A stretch of 64,000 nt of DNA. Source: Methanomassiliicoccales archaeon (lineage in GTDB: Archaea > Thermoplasmatota > Thermoplasmata > Methanomassiliicoccales > UBA472). Each line of letters starts with the position of its first letter. Position 1 is the stretch's first letter. This document shows, piece by piece, positions 6,776 to 15,834 of this stretch. Below the pieces are notes generated by a model. That model was not told where the DNA came from, searched no databases, and worked only from the letters and a program-made list of their open reading frames with translations. A program made the translations under genes and the position numbers. The DNA lies in NCBI GenBank assembly GCA_040765825.1, contig JAXGRO010000003.1, forward strand, positions 27,262 to 91,261, written 5' to 3'.

Positions 6776-7909
6776 TTGATTAATACCGCCGAAGCCCTTC
6801 CGGCCCCTGTGATAGGGATGAAGGACCGAGTCAGATGGATATTCTCCAATTGCCCTGAGGACCTGGACGCCGTGGTGATCATGAACGGGGAGGAACCTCT
6901 CCTCGACGTGGCCTTCCCCTACGTCACCGGGACCAAGGCCGGGCTGTTCGAGGGCTGCCTGGGAATCATAACCCCGGACGGCCGCTCCACGGTGATCACC
7001 TCCGCATTGGAGGAGACCTCCGCCAGGGAGGGGAAGGCGGAGGTGATGACATTCCGCACCAGCAAGGAGCGGGAAGAGCTCGCCGTGGACCTTCTGAAGG
7101 GTTTGCGCAAGGTGGGGGTGAACGGCCTGGGGATTATCCATGCCAACTACCTGCACGTGAGGAGGTGGGCGGGAAACGCCGAACTTGTGGACGTCAGCAC
7201 GGGGCTGGAGGCGTCCCGTCTGATAAAGGATGGGGAGGAGGTGGAGCGGATGCGCAGGGCCTGCCGCATCGCCTCCCAGGTGGCCGACGAGATCCCGGGG
7301 ATGCTCAGAATGGGAATGAAGGAGTACGAGATGGCCGCGGAGCTGAACTACCGCATGATGAGGCTCGGCTCATCCGGTCCGGCCTTCGGCACCAACGCCT
7401 CCTTCGGGGCCAGTTCGGCCGAGCCCCATCACGAGGCGGAGGACATCGCCCTCAAGGACGGCGACACCGCCCTCTTCGACTTCGGCTGCAAGGTGGAGGG
7501 CTACTGCTCGGACATCACCCGCACCTTCTTCGTGGGCGAGGTCAAGGAATGGCAGAGGCGCATGTACGAGGTGGTCAGCCAGGCGCAGCAGGCGGCCCTT
7601 AAGGTGATCAGGGCAGGGGTGAACGGTAGGGACGTGGACGCCGCGGCCCGGGCGGTCATCGACGCCTCGGAGTTCAAGGGACTGATGGTGCACTCCACCG
7701 GCCACGGGCTGGGGCTCTCGGTGCATGACGGGGGGCGCATGGCCCCCAACCACGACTTTCCGCTGAAGGCCGGCATGGTCCTCACCGTAGAGCCGGGGGT
7801 ATACATACGAGGGCAGGGAGGGGTGAGGATAGAGGACGATGTGCTCATAACCGAGGACGGATACGAGATGCTCACCAGCGCGGACAAGAGGATGAGGGTG
7901 ATTCAATGA
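6776..7909 (+). CDS. Xaa-Pro aminopeptidase/dipeptidase (M24B)
   Basis: DFG..YCSDITRT, HSTGHGLGLSVHD, TVEPGVY, GVRIEDD; real start may be the ATG at 6818. Confidence 0.93.
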   Translation: MINTAEALPAPVIGMKDRVRWIFSNCPEDLDAVVIMNGEEPLLDVAFPYVTGTKAGLFEGCLGIITPDGRSTVITSALEETSAREGKAEVMTFRTSKEREELAVDLLKGLRKVGVNGLGIIHANYLHVRRWAGNAELVDVSTGLEASRLIKDGEEVERMRRACRIASQVADEIPGMLRMGMKEYEMAAELNYRMMRLGSSGPAFGTNASFGASSAEPHHEAEDIALKDGDTALFDFGCKVEGYCSDITRTFFVGEVKEWQRRMYEVVSQAQQAALKVIRAGVNGRDVDAAARAVIDASEFKGLMVHSTGHGLGLSVHDGGRMAPNHDFPLKAGMVLTVEPGVYIRGQGGVRIEDDVLITEDGYEMLTSADKRMRVIQ

Positions 7910-9282
7910 TGGACGATCTGGCGAAGGCGGTGGAGAGAATGCAGGCTGAGGGTGCGGACTTCTGCGATGCCCGATACCAGGTGATCACCTCCAACGGGAT
8001 AGCCGTTGTCGACGGAGCGGTGCGACGGATCTCCGAGGACAAGGTCAGGGGGGCCTGCCTCCGCGCCCGCAAGAAGGGCTCGTGGGGATACGCCACCACC
8101 GTGGACGTGTCCAAGGATGTGCTGCTGGAGGCGGCGGTCAAGGCCGCCAGGAACGCCCTGGCCGGGAATTCCCCTGGGAAGCCGATCCCGGATACCGGGG
8201 AGCTGCGCCAGGACCTCAAGGCCCAAGTGGGCATCCACCCCGTCAAGGTGGGCATGGACGAGAAGGTCCTGGCCGTGCTGGATATGGACCGGGCTCAGAA
8301 GGTGGACCCGCGCATCGTGAACACCAACTCCCTGCTGAGGGAGGAGGTTCGGGAGAACATGCTGGTCAACAGCCACGACCGCCGGCTGAGCTGGGAGGAG
8401 GTGCGCTCCACCATCATGGTCGAGGCGGTGGCCTCCGAAGCCGGGCGCACCGAGTTCTTCTACGACATCAGGGGAGGGGCCAAGGGGTATGAGGTGGTCA
8501 AAGGGACGGACCTGGAGGCCTTCGGACGCGAGGCCGGCAAGGAGGCCCTGAAGATGCTGGGGGCGGAGAAGGCCCCCTCGGGGCTGCTCACATGCATCAC
8601 CTCGCCCAGCATCTCTGGCCTGCTGGCGCACGAGGTGATGGGACATGCCTCCGAGGCGGACGAGATCGTCAAGCGCCGCTCCTTCCTTACGGACATGACG
8701 GGCAAGAAGGTCGGCTCACCGCTGATAACCATGGTCGACGACGGCACCGTGGCCGGGGCACGTGGATCCATTCCATTCGACGACGAGGGCACGCCCTCCT
8801 CGCGCACGGTCATCATCAGGGACGGGGTGTACCAGGGGTACATGCAGTCCCTGGAGACCGCGGCGGAGATGGGTGTGCGGCCGACCGGCAACGGCCGCGC
8901 CCAGAGCTATGACCGCCGGGTGTGGGTGCGCATGACCAATACCTTCTTCGAGAAGGGGGACCAGAACCTGGAGGAGATGATCGCCGATGTCAAGTTCGGG
9001 GTGCTCACCGACCGCATGATCAGCGGCATGGAGGACCCGGTGGGGGGCGGCTTCGAGGCCAAGGCCCTGCGCGGGCATCTCATTGAGAACGGGAGGGTGA
9101 CCAAGCTGCTGAGGTCATTCACCCTCACCGGCAACGCCCTGGAGATCCTGGGCACCGCGGACGCTGTGGGCGACCAGGTGGAACTGGACGGGGGCTCCTG
9201 CGGGAAAGGCATCGAGGACTGGGTGCCGGTCTCCTCCGGAGGGCCGTACTGCCGCTTCAAGATCGTGCTGGGAGGTGACTGA
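7906..9282 (+). CDS. tldD: TldD metalloprotease, catalytic subunit
   Basis: LAHEVMGHASEAD, FDDEG, RMTNTF, CGKG. Confidence 0.92.
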   Translation: MMDDLAKAVERMQAEGADFCDARYQVITSNGIAVVDGAVRRISEDKVRGACLRARKKGSWGYATTVDVSKDVLLEAAVKAARNALAGNSPGKPIPDTGELRQDLKAQVGIHPVKVGMDEKVLAVLDMDRAQKVDPRIVNTNSLLREEVRENMLVNSHDRRLSWEEVRSTIMVEAVASEAGRTEFFYDIRGGAKGYEVVKGTDLEAFGREAGKEALKMLGAEKAPSGLLTCITSPSISGLLAHEVMGHASEADEIVKRRSFLTDMTGKKVGSPLITMVDDGTVAGARGSIPFDDEGTPSSRTVIIRDGVYQGYMQSLETAAEMGVRPTGNGRAQSYDRRVWVRMTNTFFEKGDQNLEEMIADVKFGVLTDRMISGMEDPVGGGFEAKALRGHLIENGRVTKLLRSFTLTGNALEILGTADAVGDQVELDGGSCGKGIEDWVPVSSGGPYCRFKIVLGGD

Positions 9283-10638
9283 ATGGACCTGGAGAGGCTT
9301 TCCAAGAAGTCGGTGCACAAGGTCCTGGAGGAGGGGGCCAAGGAGGCCGAGGCCTACCTGGTGCGGGTGCGCTCCCTGTCGGCCTACATCGACGACGACC
9401 GCATCAAGAACCTGGAGGACAAGCTGGACCAGGGCGTCTCCGTGCGGGTGCTGCTGAATGGGAAGATGGGGCAGTCCAGCTCCACGCTGTACGCCTCCAG
9501 GGACCTGGAGGAGTGCGGGGCCAAGGCCGTATCGCTGGCCAGGCTTTCCCGCCCCGATCCCTACTTCAAGAGGTTCGCCGGCTTCCAGCAGCCCTCCGGG
9601 CATGTGGACGCCCGCTCCGAGGACATGGCCTCCGCCAGCACCCAGGACCTGGGGTCCCTGGTGCAGGATATCGTGAAGGCGGCCGGCCAGGACGTCAAGG
9701 TGCCCCGGGGGCTCCTGCGCGTGGCCCTGGTGGAGAGGGCGCTGTGCAGCAGCAACGGCGCGACCTTCCATGAGGTGAGCACCATGGCCTACGCCCATTT
9801 CACGACCATGACCAAGGGGCCGGAGCCCGGGGAGGGCTGCGAGTGCTATTACTCATCCGGCCTTGCCGCATTGGACGCCGAGGCTATGGGCGAACGCTTG
9901 AGGCGCAAGGCCATGAACGCCAGGGACGCCGAGCATTTCAAGGGCAAGATCACCTGTCCGGTGGTCCTTCCGCCGGAAGAGCTGGCGGAGATGCTGCTGG
10001 CCTCGGTGGGCTACGCCCTGGACGGGGAGAACGCCCTGCGCCGCCGCTCCCCCTGGGGGGAGATGGTCGGAAAGGAGGTGGGCAACGGCCTGGTGGATAT
10101 CAGGGACCAGCCCTGGGACGCCCGCTCCGCGCTCTCCGGCAGGTACGACGACGAGGGCACCCCCACCAAGGAGAAGCCCCTGGTGGAGAGGGGGGTGCTG
10201 AAGACCCTGCTCTACGACGGATACCACGCCCAGATGGGCAATGTGGCGCCCACGGGCAACTGCCTCCGACGGGACCCATCGGACGCCTTGAACCTGTACC
10301 GGCGGGGAGGGGTAACCCTCCCGGTGAACCTTGCCTGGAAGCCTGGCAAGGGGAGCGTGGAGGACATGATCTCGGGGATGAAGGAGGGGATGGTCATAGA
10401 GAAGCTGGCCGCTCCGGACGTCAACTCCATCACCGGAGGCTTCGCCCTGGAGGTGCGCAGCGCCAAGCTGGTGCGCGACGGGGCGGTGGCCGGTCATGTG
10501 GACCAGTGCCTGCTGGTCGGCAACTTCTACCAGGCGCTCAAGCGGGTGGGGGCGGTCGCTGACGATCCGACGGTGCACCGGAACTGCATCGTACCCTCGG
10601 TGATGTTCGAGGACCTGGAGATCGTGGGCAGCGGGTGA
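9283..10638 (+). CDS. pmbA: PmbA/TldE subunit
   Basis: TldD-like fold with YDDEG and TGNC but no HExxxH; directly follows tldD with SD ggaggtga. Confidence 0.85.
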   Translation: MDLERLSKKSVHKVLEEGAKEAEAYLVRVRSLSAYIDDDRIKNLEDKLDQGVSVRVLLNGKMGQSSSTLYASRDLEECGAKAVSLARLSRPDPYFKRFAGFQQPSGHVDARSEDMASASTQDLGSLVQDIVKAAGQDVKVPRGLLRVALVERALCSSNGATFHEVSTMAYAHFTTMTKGPEPGEGCECYYSSGLAALDAEAMGERLRRKAMNARDAEHFKGKITCPVVLPPEELAEMLLASVGYALDGENALRRRSPWGEMVGKEVGNGLVDIRDQPWDARSALSGRYDDEGTPTKEKPLVERGVLKTLLYDGYHAQMGNVAPTGNCLRRDPSDALNLYRRGGVTLPVNLAWKPGKGSVEDMISGMKEGMVIEKLAAPDVNSITGGFALEVRSAKLVRDGAVAGHVDQCLLVGNFYQALKRVGAVADDPTVHRNCIVPSVMFEDLEIVGSG

Positions 10639-11010
10639 TCAGTCCAGCGGTTCCAGGGTCACCCTGGTGCGGTCAGGCAGGTCCACCAGGGCCTCCAGGT
10701 TGCCCAGCACCCGCCCCACCGGGGTGACCGGCCTGATGGCCTCCGGCCGGGAGGTGGTGGAGCAGGGCGTCCTGCCGAAGAAAACACAGAAGGCGTTGCC
10801 CTCGGGCCAGAAGGCCACCTCACCCTCCTCCAGTATCTTCCGCCCGTTCTCCAGCTCGGAATCCACCGGCACCGGGAAGAATATCTCTCCGCCCCAGGCG
10901 TTGATCTCCCGCTCCAAAGGCAGGGCCTGGTAGATCTTGTAGGCGGTGATCGAATCGTTGAGCTCTATCTCCCAGCGCTCGTACCGGCTGCGCATCAGAA
11001 TACGTTCCAT
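10639..11010 (-). CDS. Cyclophilin-like fold protein (TM1367/DUF369 type)
   Basis: WGGEIFF, GEVAFWPEGNAFCVFFGRTP. Confidence 0.85.
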   Translation of the reverse strand: MERILMRSRYERWEIELNDSITAYKIYQALPLEREINAWGGEIFFPVPVDSELENGRKILEEGEVAFWPEGNAFCVFFGRTPCSTTSRPEAIRPVTPVGRVLGNLEALVDLPDRTRVTLEPLD

Positions 11011-11056: not shown

Positions 11057-12046
11057 TCACTTCTTGCTCTCGAAGAGGGCCCGGATCTCCGTGCCCACCT
11101 TCTCGATCTGGCTGTCGCCCTCGGCCTTCTCCAGGGACCTCATGCGGGGCATCCCGGCCTTGGCGTCGGCCAGCCATTCCTTCGCGAACTCCCCGGAACA
11201 GATGCGGTCCAGCATCCTCTCCATGGCCGCCTTGCTCTCCTCGTTGATGACCAGGTCGCGGGTGGTCAGGCCGCCGAACTCCGCGGTGTTGGAGACGCTC
11301 CTCCACATGTTCATCATGCCGCCGGAGTAGATCAGGTCCACGATCAGCTTGACCTCGTGCAGGCACTCGAAGTAGGCGATCTCGGGCTGGTATCCGCGCT
11401 TGACCAGGGTCTGGAACCCGGCATTGATGAGGGCGGTCACGCCCCCGCAGAGCACGGCCTGCTCCCCGAACAGGTCGGAGGTGGCCTCCTCGCGGAAGTT
11501 GGTCTCCAGCACTCCGGCCTTGGTGGACCCCAGGCCCTTGGCCAAGGCCAGGGCGATGGCCTTGGCGTTGCCGGTGAAGTCCTGCTCCACGGCTATGAGG
11601 GCGGGGACTCCGAAGCCCTCCAGGTACACCTTCCGCTCCATGGGGCCAGGCGCCTTCGGCGCCATCATGATCACGTCCACGGTCTTGGGCGGCTTGATGG
11701 TCCCGAAGGTTATGGCGAACCCGTGGGCGAACTCCAGGGCCGCGCCCTCCTTCAGGTTGGGCTCTATCTCGGCCCTGTAAACGTCCCCCTGGACCTCGTC
11801 GGGTATGAGCACCATGACCACGTCGGCGCCCTTCACGGCGCCGGCCACGGTGTCCACCTTCAGGCCGTTCTTCTTGGCCTCCACCCAGGACTTGCCGTCC
11901 TTGCGGACGCCCACGGTGACGTCCAATCCGCTGTCGTGCAGGCACAGGGCCTGGGCCCTGCCCTGGCTCCCGAAGCCGATGACCGCGACCTTCTTGCCCT
12001 TCAGGACGCCCAGGTCGGCGTCCGACTCGTGATATATCTTAGCCAT
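11057..12046 (-). CDS. ilvC: Ketol-acid reductoisomerase
   Basis: IGFGSQGRAQA, FAHGF, MAPKAPG, SDLFGEQAVLCGG; SD ggtgatc before the ATG at 12046. Confidence 0.97.
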   Translation of the reverse strand: MAKIYHESDADLGVLKGKKVAVIGFGSQGRAQALCLHDSGLDVTVGVRKDGKSWVEAKKNGLKVDTVAGAVKGADVVMVLIPDEVQGDVYRAEIEPNLKEGAALEFAHGFAITFGTIKPPKTVDVIMMAPKAPGPMERKVYLEGFGVPALIAVEQDFTGNAKAIALALAKGLGSTKAGVLETNFREEATSDLFGEQAVLCGGVTALINAGFQTLVKRGYQPEIAYFECLHEVKLIVDLIYSGGMMNMWRSVSNTAEFGGLTTRDLVINEESKAAMERMLDRICSGEFAKEWLADAKAGMPRMRSLEKAEGDSQIEKVGTEIRALFESKK

Positions 12047-12103
12047 TTGATCACCGTTAGATGCGTTGAGGCATTTTTTCCTCATTATTTACAATGTTCT
12101 ACC

Positions 12104-13804
12104 CTAACACCCGGCTTGGTTCCACCGGCATCGACTGCGTATGGTCCCGTCCTTGCTAGCCACGCCGCCAGGCAGCATGGGCAGCATGTCCTCCTCGGGG
12201 TCGATGCGGATGTCAACCACGAAGGGCACGTCGGAGCTGAAGGCCTCCTTGAAGGCGTCCGGCAGCTCGCTGGACCTGGTGACGGTCACCCCGCCGGCCC
12301 CGTAGGCCTCCGCCAGCTTCACGAAGTTGGGGTTGTTGCGCAGCTCGGTGCTGCTGTAGCGGCGGTCCCACTGCAGCTTCTGCCACTGCTTCACCATGCC
12401 CAGCCAGCCGTTGTTCAGCAGGCACACCACCACCGGGAGCTCCTCGGTCATGGCGGTGGCCAGTTCCTGGAACACCATCTGGAAGCTTCCGTCCCCGGCC
12501 ATGTCCACCACCTGCTTGTCCCGGTGGGCGTACTTCACGCCGATGGACGCGGGGAAGCCGAAGCCCATGGTGCCCATGCCCCCGGAGGTCACGAAGTGCG
12601 TGGGGTCCTGCAGGCGCATGAAGTGCGCGGCCCACATCTGGTTCTGTCCGACCTCGGTGACCACGTATGCATCGGGCGCCAGCACCTTCCTTAGCTCGTG
12701 CAGCACCTTCTGCGGCTTGATCTGCCCCTCATCGATGTCTATGTTGCACACGCAGATGTCCGCAAGCTCCTTCACCCTCCGGCTCCAGGCGCTCTCGCCC
12801 TTGGACCGCCCCAGGGCCTTGATGATCATCTGCAGCCCCCTCTTGGCGTCCCCGACCAGCCGGGCCTTGGTCCGGTAGTTCTTTCCGGCCTCCATGGGGT
12901 CTATGTCCAGATGAACCACCTTGGTGTCCTTGGAGACCTCGCTGTCGTAGCCTATGGTGCGGTCGGAGAACCGGGCGCCGATGACGAACACCACATCCGC
13001 CTCCAGGATGGCTTTCCTGGAGCACTCCCGACCGTGCATACCGAGTATGCCCAGGGATAGGGGGTGGTCCTCGGGGATGATGGCTTTGGCCATGATGGTG
13101 GTTATCACCGGGGCCATGAGCATCTCGGCAAGCTTGAGTATCTCGCCGGAGGCGTTGGACCATCTGGCCCCTCCGCCCACCAGCAGTGCCGGCCTCTCGG
13201 CGTCCCGCAGTATCTTCACCGCGTCCAGCAGCTGGGAGAAGTCCTCGAAGGGAGCGGGCACCGGGAAGTTCTCGTTCAGCAGGGCCGGGTCTATCTCCCC
13301 CCGCTGCACGTCCACCGGCAGGTCGATGTGCACAGGACCCTTGCGACCGGTGTTGGCTATGGTCATACCCCGCTTGATGGCCTCCGGAAGGTCGTTGGGC
13401 TTCAGCACACGGTAGTTGTGCTTGGTGATGGGCATCATCAGGCTGAAGATGTCCGCCTCCTGGAAGGCGTTGTTGCCTATGGCCGAGGTGGCCACCTGGC
13501 CGGTGAGGACCATCATCGGGGACGAATCAGCATAAGCGGTGGCCACCCCTGTCACCAGGTTGGTGGCTCCCGGACCGGAGGTGGCGATGCAAACCCCGGT
13601 CTTGCTGGTGGTGCGGGAGTATCCATCGGCCATGTGGGCCGCGCACTGCTCGTGGCGGACCAGGACGTGGTGGATGTCGGAGTTCAACAGCTCATCATAT
13701 ATCGGAATGGTCACCCCGCCGGGGTAACCGAACATCACGTCCACGCCCTGCCCTTCAAGCAGTTCCAGAACAGCCTTGGCACCTTTCATACACTGATCCC
13801 TCAT
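12104..13804 (-). CDS. ilvB: Acetolactate synthase, large subunit
   Basis: FGYPGG, RHEQCAAHMADGY, TSGPGATN, AFQEAD, GDGSFQM...NNGWLGMV; start at 13804 or 13789. Confidence 0.96.
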   Translation of the reverse strand: MRDQCMKGAKAVLELLEGQGVDVMFGYPGGVTIPIYDELLNSDIHHVLVRHEQCAAHMADGYSRTTSKTGVCIATSGPGATNLVTGVATAYADSSPMMVLTGQVATSAIGNNAFQEADIFSLMMPITKHNYRVLKPNDLPEAIKRGMTIANTGRKGPVHIDLPVDVQRGEIDPALLNENFPVPAPFEDFSQLLDAVKILRDAERPALLVGGGARWSNASGEILKLAEMLMAPVITTIMAKAIIPEDHPLSLGILGMHGRECSRKAILEADVVFVIGARFSDRTIGYDSEVSKDTKVVHLDIDPMEAGKNYRTKARLVGDAKRGLQMIIKALGRSKGESAWSRRVKELADICVCNIDIDEGQIKPQKVLHELRKVLAPDAYVVTEVGQNQMWAAHFMRLQDPTHFVTSGGMGTMGFGFPASIGVKYAHRDKQVVDMAGDGSFQMVFQELATAMTEELPVVVCLLNNGWLGMVKQWQKLQWDRRYSSTELRNNPNFVKLAEAYGAGGVTVTRSSELPDAFKEAFSSDVPFVVDIRIDPEEDMLPMLPGGVASKDGTIRSRCRWNQAGC

Positions 13805-13853
13805 TTCTCCAATCCTCGAGGACGTTGGAAATAACGTCCCCTGTCACAAGACG
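13801..13853 (-). promoter_or_regulatory. Putative attenuator with alternative hairpins between the leader ORF and ilvB
   Basis: 9-bp stem GGGGACGUU/AACGUCCUC (13841-13818) is mutually exclusive with a bulged stem (13834-13801) covering the ilvB start region; pairing checked by hand only. Confidence 0.6.
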
Positions 13854-13900
13854 ACAATAACAGTGAGCGATGGCAAAAGCGAATACGTTCTCTCACCCAT
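13844..13900 (-). CDS. Putative ilv leader peptide MGERTYSLLPSLTVIVVL
   Basis: ATG at 13900, TGA at 13846-13844; 8 of 18 codons are Leu/Val/Ile and it ends in VIVVL; aaggga before the ATG; directly upstream of ilvB. Confidence 0.7.
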   Translation of the reverse strand: MGERTYSLLPSLTVIVVL

Positions 13901-13937
13901 GTTGTCCCTTGACACGGGTAAACTTCATGCGGAGCAT

Positions 13938-13950
13938 GATATTTAAGAAT
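13938..13950 (-). promoter_or_regulatory. TATA box of the ilv leader/ilvB-ilvC transcript
   Basis: Minus strand cttaaatat about 40 nt upstream of the leader ATG. Confidence 0.55.
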
Positions 13951-13972
13951 ATCTGATTCATGGAGGGGAGAT

Positions 13973-14509
13973 ATGAACGCTGGGGAGGGTGATGATGGCA
14001 GCGGACCAGGGGACCAGGACTCGGTGGCTCTGGTGGACCACGACCCGAGCTGGACAGCGGCCTTCGAGAGGGAGAGGTCGGCCTTGCTCCTTCACCTGGG
14101 GGCATCGGCGCTCAGCGTGGAGCATGTGGGCAGCACCGCCGTGCCCGGGCTGAGGGCCAAACCGGTGCTGGACATCATGGTGGGGGTGAGGGAGCTCGCC
14201 CTTCCGGCATTCAAGGCCCCGCTGGAGGGGCTGGGGTACGTGCATGTGCCCATCGGGTGCCGGGAAAGGCTGTTCTTCCGCAAGGGCATGCCCCGCACCC
14301 ACCACCTGCACTTGGTGCTGGAAGGGGGAGAGGAGCAGCGGAGGCATCTCGCCTTCCGGGACTGGCTGAGAGGTCATCCGGAGGACGCCCGGGAGTACCA
14401 GGACCTGAAGGAGGGGCTGGCCGAGCGCTTCGCCCGTGACCGGGATTCGTACACCGAGGGCAAGGCGGGATTCATCAGAGGGATCCTGGCCAAGGCAATG
14501 GACGAGTAG
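13973..14509 (+). CDS. GrpB/UPF0157 family nucleotidyltransferase-like protein
   Basis: VEHVGSTAVPGLRAKPVLDI, HLAFRDWLR, YTEGK; SD ggaggg. Confidence 0.9.
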   Translation: MNAGEGDDGSGPGDQDSVALVDHDPSWTAAFERERSALLLHLGASALSVEHVGSTAVPGLRAKPVLDIMVGVRELALPAFKAPLEGLGYVHVPIGCRERLFFRKGMPRTHHLHLVLEGGEEQRRHLAFRDWLRGHPEDAREYQDLKEGLAERFARDRDSYTEGKAGFIRGILAKAMDE

Positions 14510-14589
14510 CCCGCTGGCCAAAACGATATAATGCCAGTATCCCCATTCCCTCAGGTCAGGAGCGTATCCCCACGAACGCCAACGAGATC

Positions 14590-15834
14590 ATGGAGAGAGG
14601 AGCCCAGAGCCAGCTTTTGAAGGACCCCTACGTGAGGCGGGTGTGGGACCTGATCAATGGCGAACCGCTCTTCAGCAAGAGCGCGGACGAGCTGGCCTCA
14701 TTGAGGGAATCGCTGCGCCGGGAATCGCTGCAGTTCTTCGCCCGGCACAGCCCCTACTATGTCGACCTCTTCGACCGCCTGGAGATAGACCCGGCCAAGG
14801 CCACCCTGCAGGACGTGGCCAAGCTGGCCATCCCCTCGGACATGCTGCGGGGGGACGGCCAGAAGCGCTTCCTGATCCAGGACCTGGAGGAGGGAGGGGA
14901 GACCTTCTCATCCAGTGGCACCACCGGCAAGGACCCCGTGCGCGTCTACCGATCGCCGGTGGACCTGGCCATCATGCTGAAGGCCAACACCGACCTGTTC
15001 GAGCATGTCTACGGGGACCTGCTGAAGGATGGCGAGGGCGTGGCCCTGTTCATGGCCGCGCCGGAGCTGCGCTCCAAGCTCAGCTTCGTGGCCTTCGTGG
15101 ACCTGACCCTGGACAAGAAGGGAATCGAACTGCTGTACGGCATGGACCTGGAGGACAAGTCCCAGGCCGGAACGCCCTGGCAGAAGCTGACCACCAACAA
15201 GGAGAACCTGCTCAAGTTCCTGAAGTCCAAGAAGGAGCCGAAGCTGTTCTTCACCGCCCCCGCCGGGGTGCACATCCTGGGGCAGAAGTTCGAGGGCATG
15301 GGGCTGGGGCAGAGGATGGCCTACAAGCTGGCCTCGGGCGCCCCGCCCATCCGTCTAGGGAAGGGAGGCGTTGTGGTCACCGGCGGTGGCTCCAAGGGCT
15401 TCGCCGATCTGCCGGAGTACCCGCAGCTGGTGGCCAACGCCCAGAAGCACTTCGTGAGCCACGACCGCTCCGGGAAGCAGGTGGAAACGCCATTCATGGA
15501 CGTCCTGGGGATGACGGAGACGCTGACCGCGCTCATCGACCGCCACGGGGTGATGGACAAGGTGCCGCACCCCCTGTCCGAGGCGTTCCTGCTGGATCCC
15601 ATGACCTTCGAGCTGGTGGAGGAGGAGGGGCGGGAGGGCATACTGGGGATATTCAACCCCTTCACCACCTCCTGGCTGGAGGTGTTCTACCCCGGCGACA
15701 TCATGACCTGGCATTCCTCGAAGGGCTTCTACGGCAAGGAGTTCGTGTACAAGCGCCGCCTGAGCGTGAAGGAGGGGTGGGACCTGCAGCGGGCCTGCGG
15801 AGGCACCCTGGAAGAGATGATGACCAAGCAGTAG
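14590..15834 (+). CDS. LuxE-like acyl-protein synthetase (ANL superfamily)
   Basis: FSSSGTTG ATP loop, TGGGSKG, DVLGMTE, PGDI, C-terminal RACG (candidate acylated Cys). Confidence 0.78.
   Translation: MERGAQSQLLKDPYVRRVWDLINGEPLFSKSADELASLRESLRRESLQFFARHSPYYVDLFDRLEIDPAKATLQDVAKLAIPSDMLRGDGQKRFLIQDLEEGGETFSSSGTTGKDPVRVYRSPVDLAIMLKANTDLFEHVYGDLLKDGEGVALFMAAPELRSKLSFVAFVDLTLDKKGIELLYGMDLEDKSQAGTPWQKLTTNKENLLKFLKSKKEPKLFFTAPAGVHILGQKFEGMGLGQRMAYKLASGAPPIRLGKGGVVVTGGGSKGFADLPEYPQLVANAQKHFVSHDRSGKQVETPFMDVLGMTETLTALIDRHGVMDKVPHPLSEAFLLDPMTFELVEEEGREGILGIFNPFTTSWLEVFYPGDIMTWHSSKGFYGKEFVYKRRLSVKEGWDLQRACGGTLEEMMTKQ

Follow-up and report, generated by a model that had tools for sequence, protein, structure and literature searches.

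Ribosome-mediated attenuation is a textbook bacterial mechanism. In the ilvBN and ilvGMEDA operons of Escherichia coli, a short open reading frame (ORF) with a cluster of Val, Ile and Leu codons precedes the acetolactate synthase genes, and hairpins lie beside the end of this ORF, where the position of the ribosome could be read out. We describe here a leader with the same features upstream of ilvB, encoding the large subunit of acetolactate synthase, and ilvC, encoding ketol-acid reductoisomerase, in an archaeon. The locus lies in a stretch of 64,000 nucleotides (nt), hereafter the window, from a Methanomassiliicoccales archaeon (GTDB lineage Archaea; Thermoplasmatota; Thermoplasmata; Methanomassiliicoccales; UBA472; assembly GCA_040765825.1, contig JAXGRO010000003.1, positions 27,262 to 91,261 of the forward strand). 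Window coordinates are used throughout, and those of the ilvB leader, ilvB and ilvC refer to the minus strand. Apart from its archaeal origin, this element departs from the E. coli attenuators in that its leader ORF is probably leaderless, in lacking a U-run terminator and any match to an Rfam leader family, and in having no conserved set of exclusive pairings of the 1:2, 2:3 and 3:4 kind. Hairpins do not serve archaeal RNA polymerase as terminators, so the output step must differ from the bacterial one, and identifying it could reveal a new regulatory principle. In its core, the ilvB leader is a real and important finding, and we regard it as a new archaeal form of leader-peptide attenuation that lacks a terminator.

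Several other described systems share part of this design. In ermC and cat translational attenuation and in tnaC, a ribosome paused in a leader ORF alters downstream structure or the access of a factor; these systems sense drugs or free tryptophan via the nascent peptide, whereas in the ilvB leader it is the codon class that is conserved and not a peptide motif. The ilvBNC attenuator of Corynebacterium glutamicum, said to have been described by Morbach et al. in 2000, reportedly has a leader peptide without a ribosome-binding site. The available sections of more recent sources (PMC11857589; PMC3890552) present this element as attenuating transcription and model it with three hairpins; on that partial account, it resembles the archaeal locus in its ilvB leader peptide with Val/Ile-rich regulatory codons and no Shine-Dalgarno sequence, while the archaeal locus differs in having no terminator and in being transcribed by an archaeal RNA polymerase. 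In the accessible part of the study by Canestrari et al. (10.1101/834739), the mycobacterial 'Cys ribulon' is characterized by polycysteine leaderless short ORFs on which a stalled ribosome blocks a duplex sequestering the ribosome-binding site. As far as described there, it shares with the ilvB leader a leaderless first-cistron ORF and consecutive codons specifying the amino acid that the downstream genes produce; its output is translational and involves no terminator, and the ilvB leader is likewise without one. The two differ in that no duplex at the ilvB ribosome-binding site is conserved in the archaeal leaders, which instead have a conserved hairpin 25-35 nt before the ilvB start. Our literature search found no amino-acid-sensing leader peptide in Archaea, in a body of sources from which most subscription journals were excluded and which is therefore not proof of absence; archaeal ribosome profiling papers (PMC11456600, PMC10117724), in their available portions, mention upstream ORFs only in general terms.

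A search for ilvB in 41 related genomes yielded 30 loci, 28 of which carried a TATA-like box 152-167 nt upstream of the ilvB start, the remaining two being truncated in one case and different in the other. These 28 leaders, representing five families, were aligned, and a model search together with named public records extended the set to 57 distinct ilvB leaders of Methanomassiliicoccales. An earlier reading of the window from its letters alone (the sequence-only reading) had pointed to a TATA box on the minus strand upstream of an ATG at 13900 and to an ORF from 13900 to 13844, with eight Leu/Val/Ile and two Thr codons, ending in GTT ATT GTC GTC TTG TGA. Both features are present as described: the TATA box, TTAAATAT at 13946-13939, is apparent in the window sequence and in its relatives, and the ORF, which follows AAGGGACAAC, encodes MGERTYSLLPSLTVIVVL. 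The choice of ATG 13900 as the start codon, with 'aaggga' as its Shine-Dalgarno sequence, did not withstand the comparison. This ATG is found only in the window's own leader and in that of locus L010, and 11 of the 13 aligned leaders from the same genus have ACG in its place. The open frame extends five codons (15 nt) further upstream, up to a GTG at 13915-13913, which is the conserved start; it is invariant in all 28 aligned leaders, where the first T of the TATA box precedes it by 30-31 nt.

The leader ORF defined in this way (13844-13915) runs from GTG 13915-13913 to TGA 13846-13844 and comprises 23 codons, encoding MSRDNMGERTYSLLPSLTVIVVL. No Shine-Dalgarno sequence was found upstream of GTG 13915. 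The distance from the TATA box to the start codon is 28-32 nt in 57/57 leaders and 31 nt in the window. Among long ORFs of the window's genome, the distance from TATA box to first start codon likewise peaks at 29-32 nt (18 ORFs in these four bins, and at most four in every other bin). Archaeal TATA boxes centre approximately 26-27 nt upstream of the transcript start. A GTG located 31 nt after the TATA box points to a probably leaderless ORF, and the spacing suggests that the transcript probably begins at or beside GTG 13915.

All 57 leaders have an uninterrupted frame between the conserved start and a stop at a conserved hairpin, and its length may be 20, 21, 22, 23, 24 or 26 codons, always in frame. 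In each of the 28 aligned leaders the stop lies 0-4 nt before this hairpin, and in one genus TAA, TAG and TGA interchange at the same stop site. Runs of three to six Val/Ile/Leu codons terminate the leader ORF in all groups. In the window this regulatory run (13847-13861, codons 19-23) reads GTT ATT GTC GTC TTG, i.e. Val-Ile-Val-Val-Leu; tails in the window's genus are VVIL, VVVL or IVVL, and those of other groups are VVVVI, V(I/V)VVLG, VVIIIS, GIIIR and VVVVLIR. Throughout the run, T is retained at codon position 2 and position 3 is free, so that it varies only among GTN and ATH codons, with GTT, GTC, GTA and GTG all used for Val and ATT, ATC and ATA for Ile. Over the last eight codons, 13, 10 and 20 columns are variable at codon positions 1, 2 and 3, respectively. 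Metatranscriptome contigs from related strains carry a synonymous change of GTT to GTG at 13859 (Val19); the same contigs show AGG replaced by AAG at 13908, changing Arg3 to Lys. The middle part of the peptide displays little conservation as protein, and leader peptides are usually poorly conserved outside their regulatory codons.

The second conserved component is the hairpin itself, referred to here as P4, which corresponds to the 9-bp 2:3 pairing of the sequence-only reading. In the window its 5' arm GGGGACGUU (13841-13833) and 3' arm AACGUCCUC (13826-13818) form nine base pairs around the loop AUUUCC (13818-13841 overall), and its computed energy ranges from -12.5 to -21.1 kcal/mol in 57/57 leaders. 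Seventeen leaders served to construct a covariance model, R1, covering the codon tail, P4 and a motif following P4. Across the 57 sequences, P4 positions were paired in 98.7% of 535 cells, compared with 41-60% when the partners were slid, the model-fitted alignment itself favouring structure. Three pairs of the upper stem show compensatory changes (31 cells), and at the base the four pairs GAGG:CCUC are unchanged in 56-57 of the 57. The comparison across Methanomassiliicoccales that the sequence-only reading had proposed thus bears out both its Leu/Val/Ile-rich mini-ORF and its 2:3 stem, which are conserved across the order.

These results depend on comparison. Folded alone, the window's leader is no more stable than shuffled sequences (z = -0.98); the single sequence therefore proves nothing, and it is the comparative evidence that lifts the element above chance. 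RNAalifold applied to a raw MAFFT alignment of whole leaders recovered only three pairs because the arms were misaligned, and group-wise alignments and the covariance model were needed. When all 4227 Rfam models were compared with window positions 13000-14600 at E values up to 10, no relevant family was found; the eight matches obtained were unrelated and at chance level, with 13.7-20 bits against gathering scores of 35-70 bits.

Two further elements accompany P4. A helix within the leader ORF, P2, had been overlooked by the sequence-only reading. In the minimum-free-energy fold of the window, its 5' arm GGUGAG (13892-13897, codons 7-8) pairs with its 3' arm CUCACU (13862-13867), located immediately before the Val/Ile run. 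RNAalifold recovered a P2-equivalent helix in four of five groups of relatives, with arms that differ in sequence (CCACGCGC:GCGCAGUGG, CCCAUUCUG:CAGAGUGGG and CACGUGC:GCACGGUG). On the other side of the hairpin, 3-4 nt after P4, the window has the motif GAUUG (13810-13814), which reads (C/G)AU(U/C)G in relatives and includes near-invariant A and T columns. Other candidates, tried and dropped, were a pairing seen by eye between the P2 5' arm and the P4 3' arm (GAGAGGAC with GUCCUC in some leaders of the same genus, and 7 bp with one mismatch in the window), which is not conserved across groups; a pairing, also seen by eye, of (C/G)AUUG with the 5' end of the mRNA, good in locus L093 and missing in most; and a further small ORF, with its start either within the P4 3' arm or at the UUG of GAUUG, which is not conserved.

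Codon run, stop and hairpin are held in a tight arrangement. The last Val/Ile/Leu codon begins 8 nt ahead of the first base pair of P4 in 52 leaders and 9 nt ahead of it in the other five. In 32 leaders the stop follows one extra codon and overlaps the P4 base by one base; in the others it ends 2 nt (20 leaders) or 3 nt (five leaders) before the P4 base. Length, by contrast, has changed many times in the middle of the ORF, the P4 loop and the spacer following P4. In bacteria, the ribosome unwinds mRNA at a point approximately 11-13 nt downstream of where the P-site codon begins. With a spacing of 8 nt, a ribosome on the last regulatory codon would therefore abut P4 without opening it, and one that had moved on to the stop would unwind the basal GAGG:CCUC pairs.

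The arrangement is also specific to ilvB. In the window's genome, R1 gave a single significant match (E = 2.9e-11), the next having E = 0.5. Order-wide and class-wide searches were carried out on samples under strict filters. Within Methanomassiliicoccales, 72 of 151 genomes had one full-length match each, distributed by family as 39/46 (f1), 1/1 (f2), 4/4 (f3), 8/10 (f5), 19/24 (f6), 0/1 (f4) and 0/64 (f7), and the match was upstream of ilvB at every locus inspected. Judging in part from identity levels and its short upstream regions, f7 probably corresponds to Methanomethylophilaceae. None of 133 sampled genomes from 27 other families of the class had a match under the same filters, which does not prove absence. 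When the window's 1.58-Mb genome was scanned by rule for TATA boxes followed, 28-34 nt later, by a start codon and a short ORF with an Ile/Val run near its end, the scan returned only the ilvB leader locus and one unrelated ORF, and no convincing case of another leaderless short ORF with an amino-acid run before biosynthetic genes was found in this genome, which is 81% complete. A phylum-wide ilvB search at E <= 1e-120 added few further ilvB genes, and the survey was not widened. Being conserved, single-copy and specific to ilvB, the leader ORF and its hairpin provide a concrete and widespread test case, bearing on archaeal transcription-translation coupling, on the translation of leaderless mRNA and on post-initiation control.

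Some loci present variations on this theme. Two AT-rich loci labelled uncultured Methanomassiliicoccus (L098 and L100) have a diverged leader that R1 missed, encoding MLVFGADSSISIVLGSVVLTS, with a hairpin AGGCACCUAG...UUGGUAGCCU after the ORF and then a U5 run. In one genus (L073-L076), and also at L015, there are tandem ilvB genes, each with a separate leader; at L073-L076 an ilvB occupies locus positions 601-2271 and the R1 match lies at approximately 2473-2541. The upstream leader of the tandem ends in AVLLVL, and the base of its hairpin is GAAGAC:GUCUUC or a similar sequence; the downstream leader ends in VVMTVI and has the usual GAGG:CCUC hairpin. Tandem ilvB genes with leaders of their own recall the isozyme-specific leaders of enterobacteria.

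Beyond Methanomassiliicoccales, we identified a second leader design. At 20 loci from metagenome-assembled genomes labelled Thermoplasmata, Thermoplasmatota or Methanobacteriota, ilvB is 56-58% identical to that of the window, and in 20/20 of them (L102, L104-L121 and L123) ilvB, at locus position 601, is preceded by a different, probably leaderless ORF of 26-30 codons, 10-14 of which specify Ile, Leu or Val, as in MCEPAGRCVNVVILLILVVLLDLRILSP. Its ATG is located 29-30 nt after a TATA box in most loci and 36-37 nt after it in two. A helix CCGCUGGUCG:CGACCUGCGG flanks the codon run, and the stop lies within the 5' arm of a long hairpin. The sequence CCUGCGG is common to the arm following the run and to the 3' arm of the hairpin, and by eye the arm preceding the run could pair with either, in what looks like classical alternative pairing. 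The same logic, realized in different sequence, provides independent support for a leader-peptide sensor before ilvB. In practical terms, it yields an annotation rule: a small gene has been missed before ilvB in Methanomassiliicoccales and in other Thermoplasmata. The peptides of this design share the C-terminus (V/L)DLR(I/T)xx(P/L), and a CUAG (a CUA Leu codon followed by G) was seen by eye inside the run in the 20 loci.

On balance, we consider it probable that the element is a ribosome-read Val/Ile/Leu leader-peptide sensor controlling ilvB-ilvC. Transcription would start approximately 23-25 nt after the TATA box, at or beside GTG 13915, so that the mRNA would begin with the start codon of the 23-codon leader ORF. 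When charged Val-, Ile- or Leu-tRNA is short, the ribosome would stall on the codon run (13861-13847) and abut P4, 8 nt from the last such codon, and P4 would stay closed. With Val, Ile and Leu in ample supply, the ribosome would reach the stop (13846-13844), where it would have to open the invariant GAGG:CCUC base, and the state of P4 would then set the output of ilvB-ilvC. Both the stalling and the direction of the response are what we infer from this arrangement. For the last step, the weakest of the scheme, the preferred version is that the freed P4 3' arm, ending in GUCCUC and mimicking the 3' end of 16S rRNA, would refold together with the following RNA onto the ilvB ribosome-binding region. 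Translational control through the released arm is no more than the leading candidate for the output step.

The sequence-only reading had proposed a more classical switch, with a 1:2 pairing that competes with 2:3 and a 3:4 helix that blocks ilvB initiation. The 1:2 pairing is possible in the window (-7.1 kcal/mol, z = -1.6), but it is not conserved: against composition-matched shuffles its median z was 0.45, and none of 57 leaders reached z < -2. Similarly, the 3:4 helix (-13.7 kcal/mol, z = -1.8 in the window) appears in the window's own sequence when the 5' arm of P4 is masked, but as a conserved element it finds no support (median z -0.15, with z < -2 in 1/57). Nor does 3:4 cover the real ribosome-binding site in the window, where the helix ends before the true Shine-Dalgarno sequence of ilvB, GAGGG at 13802-13798, and its start at ATG 13789; the AUG at 13804 that 3:4 covers is not the ilvB start, relatives reading ATG AGG GAT TAG there. 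Altogether, P2 and P4 are the only conserved pairings; no conserved antiterminator and terminator helices that exclude one another were found, and among the 57 leaders there is no conserved duplex that sequesters the ilvB ribosome-binding site, the state of which barely shifts with ribosome position. The earlier idea that a stalled ribosome leaves 2:3 closed and that one at the stop opens it agrees with the conserved spacing.

Several observations weigh against the sensor reading, and most strongly against its proposed translational output. In ribosome-masked folding, as the sequence-only reading had suggested doing, no consistent switch emerged at the ilvB ribosome-binding site: the mean unpaired probability of this region was 0.41 in free RNA, 0.40 and 0.37 with the ribosome stalled at either of two sites and 0.36 with it at the stop. 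In favour of the translational output, the mean pairing of CCUC with the Shine-Dalgarno sequence rose from 0.09 to 0.36 over 28 leaders once the P4 5' arm was masked, but the paired share of the Shine-Dalgarno sequence rose only from 0.56 to 0.63, and in the window itself the CCUC:Shine-Dalgarno pairing was 0.00 in both states. Also in its favour, consensus folds with a ribosome at the stop placed CCUC on the Shine-Dalgarno sequence in two of five groups and on the GAGG at ilvB codons 2-3 in one group, with nothing in the other two. The complementarity of the P4 3' arm to the downstream region was no better than that of shuffles (median z = -0.15), and a paralogous leader in one genus retains the hairpin with a GAAGAC:GUCUUC base, which argues that the structure matters and not an anti-Shine-Dalgarno sequence. 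As regards the sensor as a whole, the per-sequence support for P2 is moderate (median z = -1.4, with z < -2 in 16/57), and related genomes are non-independent samples. According to the alignment, the stretch from codon run to P4 has no insertions or deletions and the stop was moved through point changes, so that the constant spacing of 8-9 nt rests on few independent events. All the support comes from sequence comparison and computed folding; metatranscriptome contigs (runs X1-X4) bridge the whole intergenic region from ilvB to the divergent GrpB-like gene, and are uninformative on RNA ends and levels.

Taking both designs together, a broader and tentative possibility is that Thermoplasmata have leaderless leader-peptide sensors of at least two designs, with a stop-adjacent hairpin and with neither an intrinsic terminator nor a conserved ribosome-binding-site duplex, whose output mechanism is unknown in bacteria, such as a ribosome-abutted hairpin gating an archaeal termination or cleavage factor, or arrest at the stop brought about by the nascent peptide and free amino acids. 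Among alternatives to the translational model, the one that survives best, which we judge a serious though rather unlikely rival, keeps the same sensor and lets the ribosome position control the completion, cleavage or stability of the transcript instead of translation initiation. In one variant, release at the leader stop would leave RNA without ribosomes, open to factor-dependent termination; in another, a nuclease would act at P4 and (C/G)AUUG unless a stalled ribosome shields both. Such an output would accommodate the lack of a robust ribosome-binding-site switch in folding, the fact that a hairpin, rather than a sequence, is common to the two leader designs and to the GAAGAC:GUCUUC paralogue, and the fixed position of (C/G)AUUG 3-4 nt from P4, which the translational model leaves unexplained. 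In some lineages (L056, L015, L075 and L076), although not in the window's genus, the P4 loop contains U5-U8, which could act as an archaeal termination signal within the hairpin. These U-rich loops, however, are not conserved across the order, and there is no U-run 3' of P4 in the window or its genus, in agreement with the absence of a U-tract already recognized by the sequence-only reading. Moreover, nothing in the letters points to a cleavage site, and we know of no archaeal factor that reads such a hairpin.

Far less probable is a nascent peptide acting as the sensor, in the manner of TnaC, with the tail and free Val, Ile or Leu arresting the ribosome near the stop so that an ample supply of them would hold P4 open. 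A ribosome lingering at the stop would supply the dynamic range otherwise missing, the stop abuts or overlaps the P4 base, and tails are strictly kept within groups (GVVVVLIR, GTV(I/V)VVLG, AVVIIIS and VGIIIR, each followed by the stop). Between groups, however, the tails vary, with III in place of VVV and a last residue that may be L, I, G, S, R, Q or C; known arrest peptides, by contrast, retain particular residues. The property common to all tails is a class of codons that specify the pathway's products, which fits the sensing of charged tRNA, and to our knowledge no such arrest peptide has been described for Val, Ile or Leu. Finally, that the leader is a structured non-coding RNA (a riboswitch or protein-binding leader) or encodes a small hydrophobic protein, its Val/Ile codons being incidental, would suit the conserved structures P2 and P4 and an ORF middle poorly conserved as protein, but is the least probable explanation, given a frame kept from the predicted transcript start to the stop at P4 in 57/57 leaders of six lengths, stop codons that interchange at one site, a run that switches between Val and Ile codons, both pathway products, an unrelated-looking second design with the same codon class before ilvB in other Thermoplasmata, no Rfam match, and a weak conservation outside the regulatory codons that is itself a trait of leader peptides.

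The genes downstream of the leader are readily assigned. The product of ilvB (12104-13789) matched NCBIfam TIGR00118 with 682.7 bits against a cut-off of 538, and that of ilvC (11057-12085) matched NF004017 with 494.9 bits against a cut-off of 336; the gap between them (12085-12104) is 18 nt. The Shine-Dalgarno sequence GAGGG of ilvB (13798-13802) is located 8 nt upstream of ATG 13789, and in relatives this start is kept as ATG, GTG or TTG, followed by AAA or AGA and then GG. The small-subunit gene ilvN is absent between ilvB and ilvC in the window. Downstream of ilvC, an ORF of 123 amino acids (aa) on the minus strand (10639-11010) was matched by no NCBIfam model. Two neighbouring plus-strand ORFs of 458 and 451 aa occupy positions 7906-10638, the first at 7906-9282, and the second, at 9283-10638, gave weak matches, under the cut-offs, to TldD/PmbA metalloprotease models.

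On the other side of ilvB, an intergenic gap of 183 nt, extending to the divergent GrpB-like gene (from 13973), contains all the leader features. At its far end (13939-13973, both strands), an AT-rich element, ATATTTAAGAATAT, forms a near-palindrome. On the plus strand, TTTAAGAA begins at 13942, 31 nt upstream of ATG 13973 of the GrpB-like gene. A single TATA region may serve two divergent transcripts, the ilvB leader and the GrpB-like gene, an idea tempered by the presence of GGAGGGGAG before ATG 13973.

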